NCBI GenBank assembly: GCA_946497955.1 | Contig: CAMMMH010000003.1 | Coordinates: forward strand, 10,316-74,315 | Length of the DNA: 64,000 nucleotides | Reading direction: 5' to 3' | From: an uncultured Mycoplasmatota bacterium | GTDB taxonomy: Bacteria > Bacillota_I > Bacilli_A > RF39 > UBA660 | In this document: piece after piece, positions 2,204 to 64,000 of the stretch | How positions within the stretch are numbered: the stretch's first letter is position 1 | How the letters are laid out: each line of letters begins with the position of its first letter | Made by a program: the position numbers and the translations under genes | Notes under the pieces: generated by a model | What the model was told of the DNA's origin: nothing | The model's input: the letters and a program-made list of their open reading frames with translations, nothing else | Databases searched by the model: none

Positions 2204-4804
2204 TTGAAAGATGCTTATACTAAAAGTAGTAATGATATTTTAGAAGAGTTAAGTAGTAAAAAAGATGGATTAAATGAAAAAGAAGTAACTAAAAGATTAG
2301 AAAAATATGGTTATAATGAAATAGAAGCTAAGAAACCTAAAACTATATTAGAAATGGTTATAGATGGGCTTAAAGATAAAATGATTTTAATACTTTTACT
2401 TGCATCAATTCTTTCCTTTATACTAGGAGAAGTAGCAGAAGGGGTAGTTATATTAATAATTATCTTTATAAATTCTTTAATTAGTATAATTCAAGAGAAG
2501 AAAGCAATGAATGCTATTATTGCTTTAAGAAATATGAATGCTCCTCATACTACTGTTATAAGAGGTGGTAAGAAGAAAAATATTTTAACTAAAGAAGTAG
2601 TTCTTGGAGATATTGTTTATCTAGAAGATGGTAATATTGTACCTGCAGATATTAGATTAATAGAAGAGAATGGTTTAAAAGTAGATGAATCATCTCTTAC
2701 AGGAGAAAGTGTTCCTGTAGAAAAAGATGCTAATATTACTTTAGATAAAAATACACCTTTAGCAGATAGAGTTAATATGGTTTATTCATCAACTATTATT
2801 TCTTATGGTACTGCTATTGGAGTTGTAGTTGGAACAGCTACTAATACAGAAGTAGGTTCTATTGCTACAATGTTAGATAATACTGATAGCCTAGATACTC
2901 CACTTAAAAGAAAGCTTAATAAAGTTGGAGAAGTCTTAAGTATTATTGGTATTGTAGTCGCTATTCTCATATTTATAATAGGGCTTATTTATGGTAAAGA
3001 CTTTATCTCTTTATTAATGGTATCTATATCTTTAGCTATCTCTGTAATACCAGAAGGATTACCTGCTACGGCAACTATTGTAATGGCTTTAGGTGTATCT
3101 CGTATGGCTAAGAAAAATGCTTTAGTAAAGAAACTTCCTGCTGTTGAAGCTTTAGGTAGTGCTACTGTTATTTGTTCTGATAAGACTGGTACTCTTACTT
3201 TAAATAAAATGACAGTTGTAAAAAGTACTTTATATAGTGATATTATTAATAAAAATGATGAGAATACTTTTAGTGATGATTTGATAAAGTGTGCTTGTTT
3301 ATGTAATAATGCTTATATTGATAAAGATAAAGTAATAGGAGATCCTACAGAAGGATGTTTATTAACTTATGCTAAAAATAATGGTTATGATATTAAAGAT
3401 ATAAAAAGTAATAAAGTTTTATATGAACAAGCTTTTGACTCTGTTAGAAAAAGAATGAGTGCTGTCATTAAAGATGAAAAGGGATATTTAGTTTATTGTA
3501 AAGGAGCTCCTGAAGAGTTAATAGATGTATGTAGTTATGCTAGCATTAAAGGCAAGTTAGTTAAACTTACTAGTGAAGATAAGGATAAAATTAAAGATTA
3601 TTGTGTCACTATGTCTAGTAAAGGCTTAAGACTATTAGGCTTTGCTATGAAAAATATTGATACTCTTCCTAAAGAAGGGGATATGATAGAAGAAGATTTA
3701 ACTTTCATTGGTATTATGGGAATAATTGATCCACCACGTGAAGAAGTTAAACATGCTGTTAATACTTGTCATGAAGCAGGCATTAGAGTAATTATGATTA
3801 CAGGAGATCATAAATTAACTGCTCAGGAAATCGCTAAAGATCTTGGTATCTATAAAAAAGGTGATTTAGTAGTAGATGGGGAAACTTTAAGTAAAATGAG
3901 TGATTTAAAGCTTCGTAATACAATTAAAGATATTTCTGTTTTTGCTAGAGTTACACCTCAAGATAAACTTAGAATTGTTAATGCTTTAAAGAAAAACAAA
4001 GAAATAGTTGCTATGACAGGGGATGGTGTTAATGATGCTCCTGCTTTAAAGAAAGCTGATATTGGTGTTGCCATGGGTATTACTGGTACAGATGTTTCAA
4101 AAGAAGCAGCAGCTATGATTTTATTAGACGATAATTTTGCAACGATTGAAGTAGCTATTAAAGAAGGAAGAAGAGTATACCGCAATATTCAAAAAGTAAT
4201 TCAATATTTATTAGCAGGTAATATTGCAGAAGTATTAACTATATTTGTCTCTATAATATTTAACTTACCAAGTCCTTTACTTGCTGTTCATATCTTATTT
4301 ATTAATCTTGTAACTGATACCCTTCCATCTCTTGCTCTTGGAATAGATCCTGCTAGTCCTAATATTATGCATCATAAACCAGTTAAAGAAGGAAGCTTGT
4401 TTGAGCATGGTCTTGTCTTTAGAATAGCCTTTTATGGAATCTATCTTGCTATTATCACTTTAACTGCATATTTTATAGGAGTAAATGATAGTTATGATGT
4501 TGGTATGACAATGGCCTTTACAGTTTTATGTTTATCACAGATATTCCATTCTCTAAACCAAAGTTCAAGTATAACATCTCTATTTAGTAAAGATTATCCA
4601 AGGAATAAAATGTTATTCCTTTCTATGGTAGGATCTATATTATTCCTTGTAATTGTCTTATTTATAACACCTATAAGAGAATTCTTCTCACTTAGTGTAT
4701 TAAGTGGAAATGAATGGTTAATAGTTATATTACTATCTTTATCACCAATTCTTATAGTTGAAATACTTAAAGCGATAAAAAGAAGATTAGGAATGGATAG
4801 TTAG
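2204..4804 (+). CDS. P-type (P2-type, Ca2+-transporting-like) cation ATPase
   Basis: CSDKTGTLT phosphorylation site, TGES actuator motif, [21 protein letters not shown] hinge, PEGLP in TM4, about 10 TM segments. TTG start 9 nt after AGGAGA; there is no in-frame ATG nearby. Confidence 0.9.
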
Positions 4805-33535: not shown

Positions 33536-33564
33536 AAAAATAAAATTTATATGAATTTTGAAAA

Positions 33565-33592
33565 TTGACTTAAAAAGAGGAGTCAATTTTTT
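33565..33592 (+). terminator. Rho-independent terminator
   Basis: TTGACT / AGTCAA stem followed by a T6 run. Confidence 0.5.
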
Positions 33593-33731
33593 ATTTTCTC
33601 TAGAGGAATTTTCAAAATTAAAGGTAGTAAATACCTCCAATTACTAATTTTCGTAAATTGCAATGTATTTTAACTTATGTTAGAGTGTAGGCATCTGCAG
33701 ATAAATCATTATTGTTGGAGGTAAAAATATT

Positions 33732-34622
33732 ATGAAACAAAAAGAAAATAAAGAAAAGAATGAAAAGAGTGAGAAGAAATTCATTAGTCTTTTATCAGAC
33801 ACTACATTTAAACACTTCTTTAAAATAGAAGACTATAAAGAATTCTTTAATACTATTATAAAACCATATACTAATATGGATATTAGTGAGTTTAGATTAT
33901 ATGATACTGAATTTAATAGTGGTAATGAAAAACGTGATTATCGTTTAGATATATTACTTGAAAGTGATAAATGTGATTTAATTATATTAATAGAGATGAA
34001 TCAGTTTCCTAGTGAAGAGACAAAATATAAAGATAGATTATATGTATACGGCTTACTTGCTAAAAGCCTAAATAGTGGTGAAGATATAAAGAAGAAGAAA
34101 GTCATTCAAATAAACTTTAATAAAGAAAAGCATCCTTATGTAAGTAAAGGTTCATTCTATTTAATGGATAAGGTAACTAATAGAGAAATAAAAGATTTCG
34201 AAATATACGAAGTGTATCTTGAAAATTACAAAGGAATAAGATATAATGGAGACAATAAAGAAGAAGCATATCTATCTTTATTTACTGCTACATCTTATGA
34301 AGAGTTAAGAGAAATAGCAGGAGATGATAAGGAGGCATTAAAGATTGTGGATGAATTAGAAAGACTAGGACTTGATGATAAGTTTGGATTAGCATATGAT
34401 AATGAATTGATGCAGAAAAAAATGATTAATACCGCTCGTAATTGGGGTTATGATGATGGTAAAGAAGCTGGGAAAGCTGAAGGACTAGAAGAAGGTGCTA
34501 AGGCAGAAAAAATATCTATTGCTAAAAAACTTCTTAATATAGGTACACCTAAAGAAGACATAATAAAGGTTACTGGACTAAGTATAGAAGATTTAAATAA
34601 CTTATTAGAAGATAATGATTAG
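33732..34622 (+). CDS. Rpn-family recombination-promoting nuclease / 'putative transposase' (PD-(D/E)XK), locus 1
   Basis: N-terminal FISLLSDTTFKHFFK. Nuclease core RDYRLDILLE...LILIEMNQ (D...ExQ). C-terminal helical tail ...AKAEKISIAKKLLNIGTPKEDIIKVTGLSIEDLNNLL typical of the TIGR01784-like family. Confidence 0.75.
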   Translation: MKQKENKEKNEKSEKKFISLLSDTTFKHFFKIEDYKEFFNTIIKPYTNMDISEFRLYDTEFNSGNEKRDYRLDILLESDKCDLIILIEMNQFPSEETKYKDRLYVYGLLAKSLNSGEDIKKKKVIQINFNKEKHPYVSKGSFYLMDKVTNREIKDFEIYEVYLENYKGIRYNGDNKEEAYLSLFTATSYEELREIAGDDKEALKIVDELERLGLDDKFGLAYDNELMQKKMINTARNWGYDDGKEAGKAEGLEEGAKAEKISIAKKLLNIGTPKEDIIKVTGLSIEDLNNLLEDND

Positions 34623-34654
34623 ACAATTAATAACTGTAAGGAGGCTACAATATT

Positions 34655-34915
34655 ATGAGCAAATCAGAAAATTTATGGCTTGATGATGATTTTGGATTAG
34701 CATATGATAATGAGATGATGCAGAAAAAAATGATTAATACCGCTCGTAATTGGGGTTATGATGATGGTAAGGCAGATGGTGCTAAGGCAGAAAAAATAGA
34801 AATTGCTAAAAATCTTCTTAATATAGGTACACCTAAAGAAGATATAATAAAAGTTACAGGTTTAAGTGAAGATGAGATAAATAATTTACTAGAAGAGTTA
34901 AAGAAAGAAGCTTAA
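34655..34915 (+). CDS. Stand-alone copy of the Rpn C-terminal domain (86 aa)
   Basis: Own RBS TAAGGAGGC 10 nt upstream of the ATG. Re-encodes residues ~206-296 of the upstream gene. A 55-nt run is perfectly identical (34408-34462 = 34716-34770). Lacks the EAGKAEGLEE segment. Confidence 0.7.
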   Translation: MSKSENLWLDDDFGLAYDNEMMQKKMINTARNWGYDDGKADGAKAEKIEIAKNLLNIGTPKEDIIKVTGLSEDEINNLLEELKKEA

Positions 34916-34952: not shown

Positions 34953-37238
34953 ATGGATTTTAAATTTACTGATAATTCTATTTATATTGTTCCTAATAGT
35001 TTAAAATTAAAACTATTAGATAAGTTGTCAAAAGAAAGAAAAATTTATAATATAACTTTTATAAGTTTAGAAGAATTAGAAAAACATTATTTCTTTGATA
35101 TAAAAGAAGATGCTTTACTATATCTTTTAGATAAGACTAATGAGAATATAGATGTGTTAAGACTTATGTTAGGAAATCTTTATAAAATAGAAATTACTAA
35201 AGAATATAGGGAGTCTAAATTAAATAATCTTAAGAGTTTATATTATGACTTAAAAAATAATAACTATCTAATATTTGATAAAGGTTATATTGATTATTTA
35301 TTAACTAAAAACATCTTTATCTTAGGTTATAGTATGCTAGAGGCATATCAAAGAGATATGTTAGATAGTATTAATACTAACTATTTAGATATTAGTGGCA
35401 ATTTATCTATAGATACTGTATATAAATATCATTCTATGAAAGATGAAGTTATAGGTACGGCTTTAAAGATAAGAGAACTTAATAGTAAAGGTGTTAGTTA
35501 TAATAAAATCTTTCTAGCGGGTGTTGACAATAGTTATAACTATTTACTTAAAACTATTCTTTCTATGTTTGATATACCTTTATACCTTAAATCTACTAGT
35601 AAACTAACTTCTTTAATAAGTGTTAAAGAGTATCTAAAAGATAAAGATATTAATCATATTAAAGATATTAATTTAAAAGCTAAGATTATGAAAATAAATG
35701 ATGATTTAACTTATGCTAAGAATAGTAAATATTATGATATTCTTTTAAAAGATAGACTAGAAAAGGCTTCAATGGACAGTATAGAGTTAGTAGAGTCTGT
35801 TAAAGTCTTAAATGAAGCATTAGATATTCCTTATCTAGTTAGTGATGATGAATACTTGTTTGCCCTAGGTTTTAATCAAAATCATTTACCTAAAATATAT
35901 AAAGACGAAGAGTACTTAAGTGATAATTTAAAGAATAAATGTAATTTAAATACCTCTACTATTAAAAATAAATTGAGTAAAGATAATCTAGTTAAAGTCC
36001 TAGGAACTATTAAAAACCTAACAATATCATATAAACTAACATCATTAACTGGAGAATATGCTAAATCTAGTTTATTAAATGAACTTAATTTAAAAGAAGT
36101 AGATAGTCTTAATTATAATTATAATTATAGTAGAGACTTTAATAATTATAGAGTAAGTAGTGTCTTAGATAATTATTATAAATATCATGAGAAAGATAAA
36201 GATTTTGACTTTCTAACTACTAATGTAGATACAAGTAAATATACTAGCTTTGATCATAAATTTAAAGGTATTAATAGAGAGGTTACTCCTTATAACTTAT
36301 CTTACTCAAGTATAGATGATCTTGCTAAGTGTCCTTTTAAATACTATTTAAAATATATCTTAAAATTAGATAGCTTTGAAGAAAATTTTAGTACAAAAAT
36401 AGGTAATATCTTTCATAGTGTTTTAAAAGACAGTTATAATGATAACTTCTCTTTTGATGTTGCTCTAAATATTGCCTTAAAGGATAATCCTTTAGAAAAA
36501 GATGAGGCTGTTTTATTTAGAAGATTAGAAAGTGAGTTAGAGAAAATAGTTAATTATAATAAAGAGGTAGAAAAAAGAAGTTTTCTTACTGAGTTTTATG
36601 GTGAAAAGAGATTAGAGATACCTCTTGGTAACCATGCAACTTTAAAAGGCTTTATTGATAAGATACTCTTTAAAGAATTTCATGATAAAACTTATTATGC
36701 TGTTTTTGATTATAAGACAGGTAGTGCAACCCTAAACTTAGATTATTTAGATGAGGGACTATATTTACAACTACCATTATATATTTATCTAATTAATAAA
36801 AGTAATTTGTTTTCTAATCCTACCTTTGTTGGTTTCTTTTATCAGTACTTATTACAAAACTATAAAGATAAAGAAGAACAACTTAAGAATTTAAAACTAG
36901 TAGGTTATACTACTGATGATAAAGTAATACTTTCCTATTTAGATGAAGACTATGAGACTAATTCTTTTGTTAAAGGGTTAAGTGTAAAAAAAGATGGAGA
37001 GTTATCTAGTAGAAGTAAAGTATTAAGTGATAGTGAAGTAGAAGATATAATGAACTCTATTAATAAAGCTTTAGATAAATCTCTTAACATAATAGATAAT
37101 AATCTCTTTGATATCGCTCCTAAAGTAATTAATAATAAAAATATTTCTTGCGAGTTTTGTCCCTTTAAAGAAGTATGTTTTGTAAGTCCTAGTGACTATG
37201 TTTATCTTGATAAGAAAGAAGGTGAAGAGAATGCCTAA
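34953..37238 (+). CDS. addB: Helicase-nuclease complex subunit AddB/RexB (no N-terminal Walker A)
   Basis: C-terminal RecB-type nuclease (GFIDKILF...FDYKTG) bracketed by Cys residues (CPFKYY; CEFCPFKEVC = Fe-S staple). Directly upstream of and overlapping addA. Confidence 0.85.
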   Translation: MDFKFTDNSIYIVPNSLKLKLLDKLSKERKIYNITFISLEELEKHYFFDIKEDALLYLLDKTNENIDVLRLMLGNLYKIEITKEYRESKLNNLKSLYYDLKNNNYLIFDKGYIDYLLTKNIFILGYSMLEAYQRDMLDSINTNYLDISGNLSIDTVYKYHSMKDEVIGTALKIRELNSKGVSYNKIFLAGVDNSYNYLLKTILSMFDIPLYLKSTSKLTSLISVKEYLKDKDINHIKDINLKAKIMKINDDLTYAKNSKYYDILLKDRLEKASMDSIELVESVKVLNEALDIPYLVSDDEYLFALGFNQNHLPKIYKDEEYLSDNLKNKCNLNTSTIKNKLSKDNLVKVLGTIKNLTISYKLTSLTGEYAKSSLLNELNLKEVDSLNYNYNYSRDFNNYRVSSVLDNYYKYHEKDKDFDFLTTNVDTSKYTSFDHKFKGINREVTPYNLSYSSIDDLAKCPFKYYLKYILKLDSFEENFSTKIGNIFHSVLKDSYNDNFSFDVALNIALKDNPLEKDEAVLFRRLESELEKIVNYNKEVEKRSFLTEFYGEKRLEIPLGNHATLKGFIDKILFKEFHDKTYYAVFDYKTGSATLNLDYLDEGLYLQLPLYIYLINKSNLFSNPTFVGFFYQYLLQNYKDKEEQLKNLKLVGYTTDDKVILSYLDEDYETNSFVKGLSVKKDGELSSRSKVLSDSEVEDIMNSINKALDKSLNIIDNNLFDIAPKVINNKNISCEFCPFKEVCFVSPSDYVYLDKKEGEENA

Positions 37239-40200
37239 ATTTACTGAAGCTCAACAAAAAGCGATAGATTTAGAAGGTTCTAACATTTTAGTTAGTGCAG
37301 GAGCAGGGAGTGGTAAGACTGCTGTTTTAACAGAAAGAGTCTTAAGGAAAATAAAAGAAGGGACACATATTAACGAACTTTTAATCTTAACATTCACTAA
37401 TAAAGCTGCCCTTGAAATGAAAGAGCGGGTTAGAAAAAAACTTAAAGAAAATGAAATCTTAGATGAATTAGATTTACTTGATAGTAGTTATATCACTACC
37501 TTTGATGCTTATTCCCTTGCTTTAGTTAAAAAATATGCTGATACTATTCACTTATCAAGTAATATAACAATTGCCGAATCTAGTGTCTTAGAACTTGCTA
37601 AAAAAGAGATATTAGATGAGATATTTTTAGATTATTATGATAGATGTCCTAATGACTTTCTTAATTTAATTACTAAATTTTGTCTTAAAGATGATAAAAC
37701 TCTTAAGAAAAGGATATTAGAACTTGATAGTAGTCTAGATTTAAAACTAGATAAAGATGAATTTATTAATACTTATATCTCTAAATATTATAGCGATGAA
37801 GTAATAGATAAATATATAAATGAATATTTAGAACTTCTTAAGAATAAAAAGGAAGAGATTATAAATTTATATGAAGAAGTTAGAGCTTTAACATCTAGTA
37901 AATATTTAGAACAGTTAGAAGAGGCATTTTTACCTTTTATAAATGCCAGTACTTATGAAGAGTTAAGAAGAACTATTTTTACATCTTTGCCTAGAGCAAG
38001 AACAGGTGTAGATAGTGATTCTAAAGAGACTAGAGATAATTTAACAGCATTACTAAAAGAGTTTAAAGACTTAGTTATATATGAAAGTGCCAACGATATT
38101 AAAGCTAGTATTATTAAGACTAAAGAATATATCTCTTGTATTTTAGAACTAGTTAAAGAATTAGATAAGAGATTTACTCTATATAAGGAAGAAAATAACT
38201 ACTATACTTTTATGGATATAGAGAAGCTTGCTATTAGTCTTGTCCGTGATAATTTAGAGATTAGAGAAGAAGTTAAGAATGGTTTTAAAGAAATATTAAT
38301 AGATGAATATCAAGATACTAATGATATCCAAGAGACTTTTATTAGTTATATTAGTAAAGATAATGTCTATATGGTAGGAGATATTAAACAATCTATTTAT
38401 CGTTTCCGTAATGCTAATCCTTCTATTTTTAAAGATAAGTATGATAACTATAAGAAAGGTATTGGGGGTAGAGTAATAGATCTTGCTAAGAACTTTAGAA
38501 GTAGAAGAGAAGTCTTAGATGATATTAATCTATTCTTTTCTCATATTATGGATGATTATTTAGGAGAAGCAGATTATAATAATGGGCATGCGATGGTCTT
38601 TGGTAATATGACTTATGAGGCAAGTGCCAAAACTACTAATAATAATTACTTGGAGATATATACTTATGATGCTAAAGATAAGGAGTTTAGTAAACTAGAA
38701 AAAGAAGCCTTTATTATTGCATATGATATTAAAGAAAAAGTTAATAGTAAGTACTTAGTCTATGATAAAGATGAAGATACTTTAAGAGAAATAGAGTATC
38801 GGGACTTTGTAATTCTTTTAGATAGAGCGACTGATTTTACTACTTATAAACAAGTCTTTGAATATTTAGGACTACCTATTACTTTGTATGAAGATGAAAA
38901 GACTAGTGGTAGTACAGATTTATATTTATTAAAAAACTTCTTTATTATAGCAAAATCTATTATTACTAACACTTATGATACTAAGTTTCGTCTTGCTTTC
39001 ACTTCCATCGCTCGTAGTTTTCTTTTCTCTTATACAGATGATGAAATCTATCAGTGTTTAGTTAATAATACTTATAAAGAGACAACTGTCTTTAAACTAT
39101 TTAAGGAAATATTAGAAAATATTGATTTGTTAACACCAGTTACTTACTTAGAAAATGTTTTAGATAAACTAAATTATATAGATAAACTTACTTTGATAGG
39201 TAATGTCGAGATTAACTCTAGTAGAATGGAATATTTCTATAACTTAATAACAAATCTTGAAAATAGTAATTTTACTATCCTTGATGTATGTGATTACTTA
39301 GAAAAAATTAATAATCTTAAGTTAGAGATAAAACTTGCTATTAGTAAAGAAGATAGTAATAGTGTTAAGATTATGACTATTCATAAATCTAAAGGACTAG
39401 AATATCCTATCTGTTACTTTGCAGGATTTTATAAAGACTTTAATAAAGATGAATATAAGAGTAATGTTTTATTTGATGAAGATTATGGCATCATTATAGA
39501 TGAAGTAGATACTAATAATAAATTAATTACTAAGACTCTTTCCTTAGAGAAGTTAAAACAAAAAGATATTAGTGAAAAGATTAGACTTTTATATGTCGCT
39601 TTAACTCGGGCAAGAGAGAAAATGATTATAGTTATGCCTAATATCGAAAATGATAAAGAAATAGGAGATATTGTTAGTACTTATGATAGGCTTAATTATA
39701 CTAACTTTGCTAAGATGGTTATTAGTGTAGCATCTCTATTTAAAGATAAAACTAAAGAAATAACTGATATTAAAGATATATCTAAAGCTTACTTAGAAGT
39801 TAAGAAGGTAGATTCTAAAATAAATAATAATATTAAAGAGTTAGAGATTATTCCTTCTATTTATGATAATAGTGTTTTAGAAAAAGAAACATATCATAAA
39901 GAAAGTGATGATGCTAAAACTAAGAACGAGTTAAAACTTCTAGAAGTAGGAAGAGTTGTTCATACTTTATTTGAAAGAATAGACTTTACTAATAACAAGT
40001 TACCTTATATAGAAGATAACTATTATAAAGATAAACTTACTAAGTTTCTTAATAGTAGTTTTATGAGACAATATAAAGATTATAAAAAATATCAAGAATA
40101 TGAATTTATTTATGAAAATAGTAATATAACTTATCATGGTAAAATAGACTTATTATTGGTTAGTGATAAGGAATCTATTATTATAGACTACAAACTTAAA

Positions 40201-40326
40201 AATACTAAAGATAAAGCTTATATAGACCAACTTAATGGCTACAGAGAAGTAATTAGTAATAAGTTAAATCTACCAACTAGTTGCTATTTATATTCGATAA
40301 TAGATGAAGTTTTCGAGAAAATTTGA
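37231..40326 (+). CDS. addA: ATP-dependent helicase/nuclease subunit AddA
   Basis: MPKFTEAQQKAI...GAGSGKT Walker A, DEYQDT, UvrD-like motifs, C-terminal nuclease (GKIDLLLV...IIDYK). The ATG at 37231 overlaps the addB stop by 8 nt. The track start at 37192 is an artefactual extension. Confidence 0.9.
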   Translation: MPKFTEAQQKAIDLEGSNILVSAGAGSGKTAVLTERVLRKIKEGTHINELLILTFTNKAALEMKERVRKKLKENEILDELDLLDSSYITTFDAYSLALVKKYADTIHLSSNITIAESSVLELAKKEILDEIFLDYYDRCPNDFLNLITKFCLKDDKTLKKRILELDSSLDLKLDKDEFINTYISKYYSDEVIDKYINEYLELLKNKKEEIINLYEEVRALTSSKYLEQLEEAFLPFINASTYEELRRTIFTSLPRARTGVDSDSKETRDNLTALLKEFKDLVIYESANDIKASIIKTKEYISCILELVKELDKRFTLYKEENNYYTFMDIEKLAISLVRDNLEIREEVKNGFKEILIDEYQDTNDIQETFISYISKDNVYMVGDIKQSIYRFRNANPSIFKDKYDNYKKGIGGRVIDLAKNFRSRREVLDDINLFFSHIMDDYLGEADYNNGHAMVFGNMTYEASAKTTNNNYLEIYTYDAKDKEFSKLEKEAFIIAYDIKEKVNSKYLVYDKDEDTLREIEYRDFVILLDRATDFTTYKQVFEYLGLPITLYEDEKTSGSTDLYLLKNFFIIAKSIITNTYDTKFRLAFTSIARSFLFSYTDDEIYQCLVNNTYKETTVFKLFKEILENIDLLTPVTYLENVLDKLNYIDKLTLIGNVEINSSRMEYFYNLITNLENSNFTILDVCDYLEKINNLKLEIKLAISKEDSNSVKIMTIHKSKGLEYPICYFAGFYKDFNKDEYKSNVLFDEDYGIIIDEVDTNNKLITKTLSLEKLKQKDISEKIRLLYVALTRAREKMIIVMPNIENDKEIGDIVSTYDRLNYTNFAKMVISVASLFKDKTKEITDIKDISKAYLEVKKVDSKINNNIKELEIIPSIYDNSVLEKETYHKESDDAKTKNELKLLEVGRVVHTLFERIDFTNNKLPYIEDNYYKDKLTKFLNSSFMRQYKDYKKYQEYEFIYENSNITYHGKIDLLLVSDKESIIIDYKLKNTKDKAYIDQLNGYREVISNKLNLPTSCYLYSIIDEVFEKI

Positions 40327-60520: not shown

Positions 60521-62143
60521 ATGGAAAAAATATATGTTTTTGGACATCGTAAACCTGATACAGACTCAGTTAGTGCAGCGATAAGCTATTCTTATTTAAA
60601 AAAACAATTAGGTTTTAATGTAGAGCCTCGTGTATTAAGTGCAATTAATAAAGAAACTAAATACGCTTTAAATTACTTTAAAGTAAAAGAGCCTGCATAT
60701 TTAAATGATGTTAAATTACAACTTAAAGATGTTAATTATCATAAAGGATATTTCTTAAATGAAAAGAAATCTATTTTTGATAGTTATATCTATATGTTAA
60801 ATGAAGGGTTAACTGGTGTACCAATAGTTGATGATAAAAATAAATTTAAAGGAATAGTTACAATTAAAGATTTAGCACATACTTTTATTAATACTAAAGT
60901 AGAGAAGCTTGAAACTAGTTATGATAACTTACTTAATGTTTTAAATGCTGAAGAAGTAAATAGAGCAGATGATGAGATAGTTGGTAATATTCTAGCCGCT
61001 GCTTATCGTAGTACAACTTTTATAAATACAGTTAAACTAACTAGTGATGATATCTTAATAGTAGGAGATAGACATAGTGTTATAGAATATGCTGTTAATT
61101 CTAAAGTTAAGATGATTATACTATCAGGATTTAGTGAAATAAAAGATGAACATATAGAACTTGCTAAAGAAAATGGCGTTAATATTATTAGAAGTAGTTA
61201 TGATACATATCATATTGCCAAATTAATAGGTTTAACTAATTATATTAGAACAATGGAAAGAACTACTAAAGATGCCGTTTACTTTGATGAAAATAGTTAT
61301 GTTGATGATATATTAGATGTTAATAAGAAATTAAGACATACTAATTATCCTGTTATCAATGGAAGAACAGGTAAATGTTTAGGGCTTCTAAGAATAACAG
61401 ATTTAGATTCTAAAAATCCTAAGAAAGTAATACTTGTTGACCATAATGAAGAAAAGCAAAGTGCTGAAGGATTGGATGAGGCAGAAATCCTAGAAATAGT
61501 TGACCATCATAATTTAAGTAGTCTTTCTACTGCTAGTCCTATTAACTTTAGAAATATGGCTGTTGGTTCAAGTAATACTATTATTTATTCGTTATATAAA
61601 GAAAGAAATATTGAAATACCAAAAGAAATAGCGGGTATGATGTTATCGGGAATTTTATCAGATACATTAATACTTAAATCACCTACAACTACAGAATTAG
61701 ATAGAAAAGCTGTTAAAGAGTTATCTAGTATTGCTGGAGTAGATTATGAAGAATATGGACTCAATTTAATTAAAGCAGGTACATCACTTGATGGTATGAC
61801 TCATGAAGATGTACTATATAATGACTTTAAACTATATACAGTAGATGATAAGACTTTAGGTATAGGACAATTCTTTACTACCAACTTTGATGATATTAAA
61901 AAAGATATGGATGCTTATCTTGATACTTTAGATAGAGAAGCAGAGGGTAATAACTATTCATTAATCGCTTTATATATAACAGATATCATTAAGAATGGTT
62001 CTTATGTTTTATTTAATAGAAAAGCTAAAGATATAATGGATAATGCTTATGATAAAGATATGAGTGAAGGTGAATATTTACAAGACTGTGTTTCTCGTAA
62101 GAAGAATGTAGTACCTGTAATAATGGCAAGTTTTGAGAAATAG
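60521..62143 (+). CDS. Family II (DHH/DHHA2) inorganic pyrophosphatase with a CBS/DRTGG insert
   Basis: VFGHRKPDTDSV, VDHNE, DHHN and SDTL motifs, with a regulatory insert of about 250 aa containing CBS-type repeats. Confidence 0.85.
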   Translation: MEKIYVFGHRKPDTDSVSAAISYSYLKKQLGFNVEPRVLSAINKETKYALNYFKVKEPAYLNDVKLQLKDVNYHKGYFLNEKKSIFDSYIYMLNEGLTGVPIVDDKNKFKGIVTIKDLAHTFINTKVEKLETSYDNLLNVLNAEEVNRADDEIVGNILAAAYRSTTFINTVKLTSDDILIVGDRHSVIEYAVNSKVKMIILSGFSEIKDEHIELAKENGVNIIRSSYDTYHIAKLIGLTNYIRTMERTTKDAVYFDENSYVDDILDVNKKLRHTNYPVINGRTGKCLGLLRITDLDSKNPKKVILVDHNEEKQSAEGLDEAEILEIVDHHNLSSLSTASPINFRNMAVGSSNTIIYSLYKERNIEIPKEIAGMMLSGILSDTLILKSPTTTELDRKAVKELSSIAGVDYEEYGLNLIKAGTSLDGMTHEDVLYNDFKLYTVDDKTLGIGQFFTTNFDDIKKDMDAYLDTLDREAEGNNYSLIALYITDIIKNGSYVLFNRKAKDIMDNAYDKDMSEGEYLQDCVSRKKNVVPVIMASFEK

Positions 62144-62546
62144 TATAGTTTAGACTATGCTTTTTCTTTTGGTAAAATTTGTGTTTTTTTGTTCTTATGT
62201 TTCTTTATTCTTTTTCTTAATATTATACTTGATTATTAGAGAAGATATTAATATTATTATTTGGGATATTGTCTATTTTTTACCTATTTTTCTATTGACA
62301 CAATTTATCTATTATGATACTTTATAGACAGAAGAGGCGACACATAAAAGATGGAGAAAGGAGGAAATTTAAAATTTTTGAAAAAAGTATGAATTTTGTA
62401 ATTTTAAGAAGTTTTTGATATAAATATTTAAAATTCGTCTAGAGAAAATAGTAAATTGAAGCCATATTTTTCTTGAATTTTGAAAATTGCCTTTTTGCAA
62501 TGATTTATAGACTATGATATATCTAATTGCAGAGAGGAGGAACTTT

Positions 62547-63353
62547 ATGAATAAAGTACCTAGATTTATATCATTAATGTCAGATACAACTGCAAAAGCT
62601 TTACTTAAAGATAAACGCTATAGTTGGTTCTATGAAGATATTATTAAATTTAAAACTAGTATTGATTTAACGAAATATAAGTTAGTTGATGCTGAGATGA
62701 ATACTGGTAATAAAGCTAAAGATTATAGAGCAGATTTAATTTATGAGAAAGGAAAACACCTTATTAATCTAGAATTAAATCAGTTTATCCACGAATACAC
62801 TTTAACAAAGAATCTATATTATGCTTTAAGATTAGCCGGTTATGGTTACTTATCAGGAGAAAATTATGATGAAAGATATGTAACTCAAATAAATTTAAAT
62901 AATAAAGTAGGAAATGATGGTAATAAAGATAATAGTTTAATAGATTATAAGTTACAAGATCCTAAATATGCTAAGATATTAAAAAATATAAATATTGTAG
63001 ATATATATCTTTTAAATTACAAAGGAATAAGATATAATGGAACTAACAAATATGAAACTTACTTATCTATGTTAACAGCAAACTCTTATGAAGAGATGGA
63101 AGAAATAGTAGGAGATTTAGAAGAAGGGAGAATAATTATGGAAAAGTTAAAAGAATTAGGATTAGATGATAAATTTGGCATGTACTATGATGCTGAGATA
63201 GTGCATAAGAAAGAAGTAAATTCTGCTAGAAAAGAAGGTGCTAATAATGAGAGAAAATCTATTGCTAAAGCGATGTTAAAAGCAGGAGAAAGTGTTAGTA
63301 AAGTAATGAACTATACTGGCTTAAATAAAAAAGAAATTAAAATGTTAATGTGA
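62547..63353 (+). CDS. Rpn-family recombination-promoting nuclease / 'putative transposase' (PD-(D/E)XK), locus 2
   Basis: FISLMSDTTAKALLK, KDYRADLIYE...INLELNQ, C-terminal ...KSIAKAMLKAGESVSKVMNYTGLNKKEIKMLM. ATG 62547 follows GGAGGA. Paralog of 33732-34622. Confidence 0.75.
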   Translation: MNKVPRFISLMSDTTAKALLKDKRYSWFYEDIIKFKTSIDLTKYKLVDAEMNTGNKAKDYRADLIYEKGKHLINLELNQFIHEYTLTKNLYYALRLAGYGYLSGENYDERYVTQINLNNKVGNDGNKDNSLIDYKLQDPKYAKILKNINIVDIYLLNYKGIRYNGTNKYETYLSMLTANSYEEMEEIVGDLEEGRIIMEKLKELGLDDKFGMYYDAEIVHKKEVNSARKEGANNERKSIAKAMLKAGESVSKVMNYTGLNKKEIKMLM

Positions 63354-63369
63354 AGAAAGAATAATAATT

Positions 63370-63584
63370 ATGAAAAAACTAAAAGAATTAGGTTTAGATG
63401 ATAAATTTGGAATGCTTTATGATGTAGAGATAGTACAAAAGAAATAATTAAATTCTGCTAGAAAAGAAGGTGCTAAAGAAAGAGAAAAATCTATTGCAAA
63501 GAATCTTCTTAAAATGAACTATCTGTTAAAGGTGTAATGAAAGCAACTGGACTATCTAAAAAACAAATAACTACCTTGATGTAG
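63370..63584 (+). pseudogene. Decayed stand-alone copy of the Rpn C-terminal domain (locus 2)
   Basis: MKKLKELGLDDKFGMLYDVEIVQKK*, with the TAA at 63445-63447. It then reads LNSARKEGAKEREKSIAKNLLK..., has a frameshift near 63520, and continues LSVKGVMKATGLSKKQITTLM*. Collinear with residues ~198-268 of the upstream gene. Confidence 0.65.
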
Positions 63585-63632
63585 TAAGTAAATATTAAGG
63601 GACTGATTAGAAAATAAAAATATTGATTTCTA

Positions 63633-64000
63633 GGTTCTTCCGAAAGTTTGCGGATTAACCAATAATAGGAAGTAGGATATATTCCTACTTTTTATTATGA
63701 ATTTAATACTTGTTTAACAATCTCTTCTAAAGCAAAGTTGTCTAAAGTGGACAAAAAACATAGATAAGTTTTCTTAAAAAGGTTGCATAATTTCTGTTTT
63801 CCATATACAATACGTTTGATAAGTTTGAATTTGTTGTTGTTACCTTCAACAAATCCAGAATTTATTTCAGAAGATATTGCGTTTCTAACAGCGGCAATAT
63901 CTTTTTTTATACCATTACAAAATGATGGAATATCATCTTTATATAACTCTATAAATATATCTAATAATTCTGTATCATTACCAAATATAATATCATGGAA
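63633..64000 (-). mobile_element. End of an ISL3-like insertion sequence (continues beyond the window)
   Basis: Candidate terminal inverted repeat GGTTCTTCCGAAAGTTTGCGG at 63633, then a hairpin (AGTAGGA/TCCTACT, 63672-63689), then the 3' end of the transposase gene on the minus strand. Confidence 0.5.
63695..64000 (-). CDS. ISL3-family transposase, C-terminal 101 aa (partial; not in the ORF track because the start lies outside the window)
   Basis: Minus-strand frame open from 64000 to the stop at 63697-63695: ...IAAVRNAISSEINSGFVEGNNNKFKLIKRIVYGKQKLCNLFKKTYLCF..., matching the N(G/S)xxEGxNNKxKxxKRxxYG C-terminal signature of ISL3 transposases. Confidence 0.65.
   Translation of the reverse strand, partial: FHDIIFGNDTELLDIFIELYKDDIPSFCNGIKKDIAAVRNAISSEINSGFVEGNNNKFKLIKRIVYGKQKLCNLFKKTYLCFLSTLDNFALEEIVKQVLNS

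Follow-up and report, generated by a model that had tools for sequence, protein, structure and literature searches.

A probable divergent Rpn gene with a predicted intragenic antitoxin and a decayed, displaced copy of its tail in an uncultured gut Bacilli genome

Toward the 3' end of a 64,000-nucleotide (nt) stretch of DNA from an uncultured Mycoplasmatota bacterium (contig CAMMMH010000003.1, positions 10,316 to 74,315 of the forward strand; hereafter the window), a long Rpn-like gene is followed by what resembles a broken copy of its own C-terminal tail. This locus raises the question of what that copy is, where it came from, and whether its decay has anything to do with the start codon that lies inside the intact gene. 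In Escherichia coli, the small protein RpnS can be produced either inside an rpn gene or by a gene of its own (PMC10400941). A sequence-only reading of the window, made without database searches, had proposed that its two Rpn loci occupy reciprocal states, locus 1 combining a weak internal GTG with an intact outside copy of the tail and locus 2 a strong internal ATG with a dead one, as if internal and outside copies were redundant sources of the same inhibitor. Here, we propose that locus 2 is most probably a divergent Rpn toxin gene with an intragenic antitoxin and a pseudogenized, displaced tail copy. The window is about 99% identical to DVHC01000035.1, a contig of the chicken-gut metagenome-assembled genome (MAG) 'Candidatus Onthousia excrementipullorum', which serves throughout as its sister strain. 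Related loci are cited by L numbers.

The locus-2 gene, its internal start and the fragment behind it

The long gene of locus 2 is an open reading frame (ORF) of RpnL type, 268 amino acids in length (62547 to 63353, plus strand; ATG 62547 to TGA 63351-63353), whose product carries an N-terminal PD-(D/E)XK-type domain and a helical C-terminal tail. Within the gene, a Shine-Dalgarno (SD) sequence, GAAGGGAG (63123 to 63130, plus strand), stands 7 nt (AATAATT) upstream of an in-frame ATG at 63138. Translation from this ATG is predicted to yield an RpnS-type protein of 71 amino acids, MEKLKELGLDDKFG... (63138 to 63353, plus strand), the presumed intragenic antitoxin. The G+C content of the window is 26.5%. 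The sequence-only reading had described all of these elements correctly and had called the internal start optimal, a description that holds for the 7-nt spacing and the ATG and fails for the SD. GAAGGGAG, with an anti-SD pairing energy of −8.7 kcal/mol, is the weaker of two variants found among genes of the locus-2 type (clade A); the other, AAGGAGGG, reaches −12.2 kcal/mol and the internal SD of locus 1 reaches −11.1 kcal/mol.

The stretch from 63352 to 63584 (plus strand) is a diverged duplicate of the last 72 codons of the long gene and would be the pseudogene of a displaced tail module, a remnant of the RpnSs (stand-alone RpnS) type. It begins with an eroded SD region (63352 to 63369), and an ATG at 63370, 16 nt past the stop of the long gene, opens MKKLKELGLDDKFGMLYDVEIVQKK before TAA 63445-63447 ends the frame. 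Beyond this stop, homology to the tail continues in the same frame and later moves to the +2 frame, which reads ...VKGVMKATGLSKKQITTLM and closes at the original stop, TAG 63582-63584. A tblastn search within the window matches the fragment to the tail of the long gene at 76% identity over 50 amino acids (E = 1.8e-17). With the intact tails of L005 and L025 as reference, two lesions can be defined: a GAA-to-TAA change at 63445, in codon 26, and a 1-nt deletion at 63518/63519 in ATGAA(T)TTATCT. Directly 5' of its ATG, the fragment has the 18 nt GAAGAAAGAATAATAATT where the syntenic ortholog L005 has GAAGAAGGGAGGATAATT; four of the six nucleotides of the SD core have changed in the fragment, and its pairing energy has fallen to −1.4 kcal/mol. 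The homology and the lesions thereby bear out the earlier description of a dead tail copy 16 nt behind the gene, with its premature TAA and degraded SD context, and they refine the frameshift that had been placed near 63520. Judged on both, the fragment is a genuine decayed copy of the gene's tail. A reading of the locus in genetic code 4 was considered and rejected: TGA serves as a stop, never occurring in frame in 35 long ORFs in which TGG is present, and read-through of TGA 63351 would not reach the frame of the fragment anyway. An Rfam scan of positions 62100 to 64000 found no RNA family.

Locus 1 (plus strand) is as the sequence-only reading had described it, with a GTG internal start and an intact outside ORF. 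Its long Rpn-like gene encodes 296 amino acids (33732 to 34622; TIGR01784 over the full length, E = 3.7e-11, 43.4 bits), its protein is 40% identical to that of locus 2, and its internal start consists of AAGGAGG (34329 to 34335), 11 nt and GTG 34347. The stand-alone tail gene behind it is of RpnSs type and encodes 86 amino acids (34655 to 34915) from its own AAGGAGG SD; the repeat segment of this outside protein is eight residues shorter than that of the adjacent internal copy. A separate intact downstream ORF with its own start, the hallmark of an RpnSs gene, is thus present at locus 1 and absent at locus 2.

Rpn family membership and conservation of the internal start

The tail connects locus 2 to known Rpn proteins directly. 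Its best sequence match in the Protein Data Bank is E. coli RpnA-S (7TH0; hmmsearch E = 4.9e-5), and in an AlphaFold2 model of the long protein (mean predicted local distance difference test score, pLDDT, of 73.6) the tail superimposes on 7TH0 with a Foldseek probability of 1.00, a template modeling (TM) score of 0.86 and a root mean square deviation of 0.7 Å at 33% identity, revealing the three-helix, helix-turn-helix (HTH)-like tail of RpnS. The N-terminal domain is linked less directly. When a family alignment was compared with E. coli RpnA by hhalign (probability 92.9%), only the last 39 residues (39 columns) were aligned; therefore, the link of the N-domain is transitive, through intermediate sequences. 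A family profile searched against a library of 1.84 billion proteins retrieved 4029 cluster representatives at E ≤ 1e-3 (roughly 560 family representatives at E ≤ 1e-10), with full-length relatives matching at E values of 1e-20 to 1e-70 over positions 1 to 275. Ten full-length distant matches were tested, of which six pass TIGR01784 and six pass PF12784 (PDDEXK_2), and residues D63, E76 and N78 are invariant across all tested full-length relatives. Via these intermediates, the N-domain is homologous to that of Rpn nucleases and retains the acidic core. No family other than TIGR01784, which is present in 14 of 15 members, recurs in the family alignment. Variation in how many four-residue repeats there are, a further Rpn feature, is found as well: 113 of the 118 full-length homologs have a length of 268+4n, and the segment after the residues NSA measures 10, 14, 18, 22 or 26 amino acids, in units such as (D/E)G-x-K, locus 2 having the minimum. 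The 86-amino-acid protein of locus 1 has a precomputed Pfam match to PF27070 (HTH_Rpn_C), in likeness to the small proteins of the PF27070 and DUF4351 families. In some species, RpnS proteins with a gene of their own carry the annotation DUF4351 (PMC10400941); in the Pfam scan of the window proteins, DUF4351 (PF14261) was not matched.

From this homology we conclude that the genes of both loci are divergent members of the Rpn family (PDDEXK_2/TIGR01784). The Rpn-type identity put forward in the sequence-only reading, with an SD and a start inside the gene at the point where the C-terminal tail begins, is thus supported by the homology of the tail and the transitive link of the N-domain. By analogy with the E. 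coli proteins, the 268-amino-acid product would be a toxic nuclease and the 71-amino-acid tail protein its antitoxin. Several points weigh against this assignment. TIGR01784 scores 20 bits at locus 2, on the tail only, and 43.4 bits at locus 1, against a cut-off of 52.1, and the Pfam scan of the window proteins gave no meaningful match, so that neither protein reaches the curated thresholds for the N-terminal nuclease domain (TIGR01784, PF12784 or PF04754). The top Foldseek matches of the N-domain are PD-(D/E)XK nucleases at non-significant E values (≥0.065). Neither locus lies in an obvious defense island, their neighbors being housekeeping genes, and the putative roles as toxin and antitoxin, like the use of the internal start, are all drawn from homology. 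PADLOC returned no match for the Rpn genes of the window, with a 2023 library that may lack Rpn.

The internal start itself is conserved across a survey of 80 related loci, all of them taken from GTDB species genomes that are MAGs of uncultured Bacilli or 'Tenericutes' in the Onthousia group. After L001, which is the same locus as in the window, had been dropped, 68 long genes with known downstream sequence were counted. An SD and a start codon (ATG or GTG) occupy the same alignment column in 68 of 68, and the stand-alone small homologs in the 1.84-billion-protein library start at profile position 198, the position of the internal start. In clade A, the SD is kept through two peptide solutions, K-E-G (encoded by AAGGAGGG) or E-E-G-R (encoded by GAAGGGAG). 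In genes of the locus-1 type (clade B), AAGGAGG and the start use the rare codons AAG, GAG and GTG, which are fixed in 22 of 22 distinct sequences even though in this genome AAG accounts for only 19.5% of Lys, GAG for 21.9% of Glu and GTG for 4.7% of Val codons; codons −4 to −1, between the SD and the start, vary synonymously. A test of synonymous entropy over the region of the internal SD did not reach significance, since the codons of the SD were no more conserved than 60% of others, and it is for this reason that we adopt the argument from rare codons. Together, these patterns are evidence that the internal start may be regarded as a real, selected feature.

An internal promoter is not claimed. 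A promoter scan finds a promoter-like site, TTTAAA-16-TATAAT, at 63011 to 63038, about 100 nt 5' of the internal start of locus 2, in a scan whose total number of sites does not exceed that in shuffled sequences (12 versus 13.8). A 28-nt stretch, AAATTACAAAGGAATAAGATATAATGGA, is identical at 34223 to 34250 and 63014 to 63041, in two genes whose proteins are only 40% identical, and places a TATAAT at a distance of about 100 nt upstream of either internal start; at locus 1, TTGAAA precedes this TATAAT at 17 nt. AAATTACAAAGGAATAAGATATAATGGA is common to clade B and to the subclade of clade A that includes the window, and is missing from most clade-A genes. It would be either a gene-conversion patch between paralogs or an internal promoter; with the site count at shuffle level and the 28-nt stretch unconserved in most clade-A genes, we leave the promoter aside.

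Origin of the displaced tail and competing explanations

The origin of the fragment can be read from orthologs that have a single tail. Window positions 63352 to 63631 align end to end with positions 4574 to 4854 of L005 and with L004 (88% identity over 282 nt), and the aligned span of these orthologs takes in 18 nt 5' of the internal start, the whole in-gene tail, the stop and 47 nt of downstream flank. L005 is syntenic with the window (93% over 4.7 kb upstream), and the downstream flank of L001 runs on into that of L005. Since the fragment is colinear with the tail of the single gene in L005, the window amounts to the L005 arrangement plus an extra unit of 232 bp (63120 to 63351). The tail of this extra unit (KAMLKAGESVSKVMNYTGL...) is 93% identical in amino acids to the tails of L010, L011 and L017, the N-domains of which are only 64% identical. 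L003, L004, L005 and some ten more genes have the tail type of the fragment (KNLLKMN..VMKATGLSKKQITTLM) as their in-gene tail, and the best-matching part of the 5' half of the fragment (about 100 nt) is 94 to 95% identical in nucleotides to the in-gene tails of L002, L004 and L005. In total, at least four tail types are distributed discordantly with the tree of N-domains.

We therefore propose, on the L005 arrangement, that positions 63352 to 63584 represent the old tail module of the same locus, or an alternative one, moved downstream by tandem duplication or unequal recombination of the 232-bp tail unit (63120 to 63351 versus 63352 to 63583). Because the start of the duplicated unit lies upstream of the internal SD in every case, outside copies would be expressible from birth, and copies born with a ribosome-binding site could persist as stand-alone RpnSs genes. 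The locus-2 copy would not have been retained, its SD having eroded, codon 26 having become TAA and one base having been lost. The direction of the event is less favorable to this account, since either a duplication in the lineage of the window or a deletion-fusion in the lineage of L004 and L005 would give the same result. In L006 and L007 (orthologs at 87% nucleotide identity), which have the in-gene tail type of the window, only the 3' half of the outside copy is left, an independent route of decay.

Similar events appear throughout the family. Outside copies, scored by hidden Markov models of the N-domain and tail on six-frame fragments, are present at 19 of the 68 loci (about 28%), and 9 of the 19 are broken. 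The intact ones are real genes; those of clade B that begin MSKSENLW... have their own AAGGAGG SD, and the ratio of nonsynonymous to synonymous substitutions is 0.14 to 0.22 among orthologs with the same tail, a range that applies to the outside gene of locus 1. The allele of locus 1 in the sister strain (L057, DVHC01000035.1) has the same AAGGAGG...GTG and no outside copy: it consists of the 5' part of the window's internal copy joined exactly to the 3' tail of the window's outside copy, with the junction within a shared AATTGGGGTTATGATGATGG, and therefore has the structure expected of unequal recombination between the two repeats. Across the family, outside copies would thus repeatedly arise, fuse back or be deleted, or decay, and tail types would shuffle among paralogs.

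Some further observations concern the same loci. Locus 1 (window 33768 to 34915 versus L057 1 to 900) is polymorphic between strains that are 97 to 99% identical. The middle of its N-domain is unusually diverged from L057 (about 88%, with a flank at 97%), which suggests exchange among paralogs. Long genes interrupted by frameshifts or stops occur among L013, L037, L041, L042, L043, L065, L067 and L079. In L037, a broken long gene precedes an intact outside tail gene, an order of decay opposite to that of locus 2. In L045 (4860 to 5477), a single long gene is followed by a tandem pair of intact outside tail genes: one starts with GTG and was recently copied from the internal tail, and the other starts with ATG and is of the older MSKSENLW type.

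We speculate that tails are exchanged by displacement, an incoming unit of internal start and tail pushing the resident tail downstream as an orphan antitoxin gene that is ready to be expressed. Orphans would be kept only where their tail type and repeat number match the long protein of another paralog, forming a trans-acting network, and would otherwise decay; a palindrome shared by the loci (see below) would then serve the HTH-like tails as an operator in the autoregulation of all the paralogs. Taken as a whole, this elaboration is unlikely.

An alternative hypothesis is that the fragment is a silent cassette, kept as a donor for recombination that switches tails. Silent pilin copies and the orphan toxin tips of Rhs and contact-dependent inhibition (CDI) systems act as silent donor cassettes of this kind. 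The modularity of the tails and their discordance with the N-domain tree fit such a role, as does the recombination of internal and outside copies at locus 1 between near-identical strains. So does the gradient of identity between internal and outside copies, which in most full-length outside copies drops from 80 to 96% in the first third to 52 to 76% in the last third. Against this, any crossover in the 5' part of the fragment would bring in the frameshift at 63518/63519, and those further upstream would bring in the TAA as well, while 3' of the frameshift the homology is only about 61%. In addition, L006 and L007 have lost the 5' half of the copy entirely, and the fragment carries no sign of selection. 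We consider a function as a donor cassette improbable.

The redundancy suggested by the sequence-only reading fares somewhat worse. It holds that internal and outside copies supply one and the same inhibitor, so that a strong internal start permits the outside copy to decay and a GTG start demands that it be kept. The two loci of the window fit this pattern, but the survey does not follow it. Of the 41 genes of clade A, 39 have ATG as the start, and 30 lack an outside copy, 5 have an intact one and 6 a broken one; of the 27 genes of clade B, 27 have GTG, all with AAGGAGG, and 19 lack an outside copy, 5 have an intact one and 3 a broken one (over both clades, 49 absent, 10 intact and 9 broken). 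Five genes of the ATG clade thus keep intact outside copies, and the locus-1 allele of the sister strain does without one behind the same GTG. The presence of an intact outside copy is independent of start type (Fisher p = 0.50), as is the balance of intact and broken copies when copy-bearing loci only are compared (Fisher p = 0.65), so that the anticorrelation between an intact outside copy and the quality of the internal start, the comparison by which the reciprocal states were to be judged, is not found in the 68 genes. On these counts, the GTG of locus 1 is the fixed state of its clade; it is not a start that has weakened and leans on an outside gene. Because the start is fixed by clade, the decay of the locus-2 copy is unrelated to the strength of the internal start, and the reciprocal pattern is an artifact of comparing paralogs from clades with different fixed start codons. 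The SD of locus 2 is, moreover, the weaker variant in its clade and not the stronger.

One relation within clade A counts in favor of redundancy. Outside copies of any state are found beside 6 of the 12 weaker SD variants versus 5 of 29 others (p = 0.052), and intact copies are nominally commoner there too (3 of 12 versus 2 of 29, p = 0.14). Beside the weaker variant, intact and broken copies are equally split and the loci are close relatives; this relation is confounded by phylogeny, and a weak effect within the clade may exist.

It is also doubtful that internal and outside copies would provide the same inhibitor. In E. coli, RpnS acts on its cognate RpnL only, and the RpnC toxin is blocked only by an RpnS with four-residue repeats in equal number (PMC10400941). 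Where an intact outside gene and its neighbor can both be scored, the lengths of their repeat segments differ (26/18, 22/14, 18/14 and 14/10); at L020 the lengths are equal (18/18) and the tail type is different. Since tail type or repeat number usually differs from that of the neighbor, outside copies are unlikely to be the same inhibitor and, were the E. coli rule to apply, would not be equivalent as inhibitors. Taken together, the clade pattern and the mismatched tails make redundancy decidedly improbable as an explanation of the two loci.

The fragment might instead still act through its first 25 codons, if the ORF from 63370 to 63447 made a working microprotein that corresponds to the tail's first helix and modulates the long protein. 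Reinitiation is conceivable with an ATG 16 nt past the stop of the long gene, and the ORF sits in the half of the fragment that is best conserved relative to the in-gene tails of orthologs. However, its SD is destroyed, its peptide would lack the repeat helix and the three-helix tail, which form the dimer interface of RpnS (PMC10400941), and the same 5' half is deleted in L006 and L007, all of which render a working microprotein very improbable. Finally, the possibility that the stop and the frameshift are sequencing or assembly errors in an outside copy that is really intact, a concern that stems from short-read metagenome assemblies of tandem repeats and for which support was not found, can be set aside almost entirely, because both lesions are identical in 11 other assemblies, namely in DVHC01000035.1 (L001) and in 10 more contigs, which stem from various ENA samples and assemblers; the fragment is 100% identical in all of them, TAA and deletion included, and the 10 contigs encode the identical long protein.

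Comparison with known systems and flanking elements

Of the readings considered above, that of a divergent Rpn gene with a displaced and decayed tail copy is the one we retain, and it places locus 2 close to published systems. In E. coli, ypaA (rpnESs) and rpnCSs lie downstream of rpnE and rpnC, each derived from its own upstream gene (PMC10400941). Because this layout has been published for rpnE/ypaA and rpnC, that of locus 2 is a further example of a known arrangement, with a small tail gene just downstream of the gene from which it derives. The likeness to E. coli Rpn extends to the PD-(D/E)XK N-domain of the long gene, the internal SD and start from which the tail would be translated separately, a segment of four-residue repeats in variable number and a three-helix tail that matches RpnA-S (7TH0). 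Loss of RpnSs by deletion or fusion has likewise been described in E. coli (Zhong et al. 2023, PMC10400941) and is seen here at locus 1 between strains. In contrast to E. coli RpnA, the N-domain belongs to the PDDEXK_2/TIGR01784 branch, with similarity to RpnA detectable only in the tail, and the window proteins score under the curated cut-offs of the family. Further differences are the host, a low-GC, uncultured member of the gut Bacilli with many paralogs per 1.5-Mb genome, and the outside copies, which bear tail types that orthologs use in-gene and of which that of locus 2 is a pseudogene in which a nonsense mutation and a frameshift are defined. A search of the literature library for work after 2023 on RpnS and RpnSs found nothing beyond PMC10400941 and its commentary.

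A second resemblance is to the orphan modules of Rhs and CDI (CdiA-CT) systems, in which a C-terminal module is replaced via recombination in a conserved upstream segment and the displaced module is left downstream without its N-terminal part, where it often decays. The proteins are unrelated, and the displaced module here would be an antitoxin or oligomerization tail rather than a secreted toxin tip with an immunity gene; the likeness is one of process, as deduced from the tail rearrangements, and implies no membership.

These results carry the 'gene within a gene' layout of Rpn, together with its stand-alone tail copies, over to a divergent branch from uncultured gut Bacilli. Members of this branch now bear the annotation hypothetical protein or transposase, and the curated family thresholds miss them. 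They also supply comparative numbers on outside copies (about 28% of loci, about half of them decayed, with turnover between strains that are 97 to 99% identical), and the pattern argues against simple redundancy and indicates tail swapping as the generating process, which bears on the evolution of antitoxin specificity. The known picture of Rpn is not fundamentally changed, and the added value is modest, residing in a comparative view of birth, fusion, decay and tail shuffling.

Upstream of both loci lies a shared palindrome. The 15-mer GAATTTTGAAAATTG occurs at 62475 to 62489 (plus strand), 58 nt upstream of the long gene of locus 2, and at 33553 to 33567, upstream of locus 1; these are the only two exact matches in the window (0.08 expected), both upstream of Rpn-like genes. 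Among the fetched loci (L002 to L080), 31 of the 41 exact matches to AATTTT[G/C]AAAATT fall within 300 nt upstream of long genes, a density of 1.56 per kb versus 0.017 elsewhere, or an enrichment of about 90-fold, and their offsets are stereotyped at about −70, −123 and −156. The palindrome may be a promoter element, or an operator at which the HTH-like tail exerts autoregulation; the AATTTT(G/C)AAAATT motif is not mentioned in PMC10400941. Degenerate second copies are found near 33606 and 62390.

Downstream, the homology of the window to DVHC01 stops at 63632, and an insertion on the minus strand (63633 to 64000) carries the 3' end of an ISL3-family transposase gene (63701 to 64000 and beyond; PF01610, E = 4.6e-7), so that the C-terminal end of the transposase directly follows the dead fragment. 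Of 10 other assemblies, only L090 (ERZ2916485) shares the 63632/63633 junction, whereas nine differ, eight with BacA next, and the insertion, which most sister strains lack, is therefore recent and polymorphic.

The neighbors of locus 2 are a CBS-DHH family pyrophosphatase gene and a cation efflux gene, both upstream, and locus 1 is directly followed (34953 to 40326) by AddB-like (PDDEXK_1) and AddA-like (UvrD helicase) genes. The circular MAG OZ006970.1 (1.52 Mb) holds at least seven paralogs of the family (L022, L024, L028, L034, L048, L064 and L066) and DVHC01 at least five, and the contigs of several assemblies end in or beside family genes. Therefore, the family behaves as a multi-copy repeat in these small genomes.

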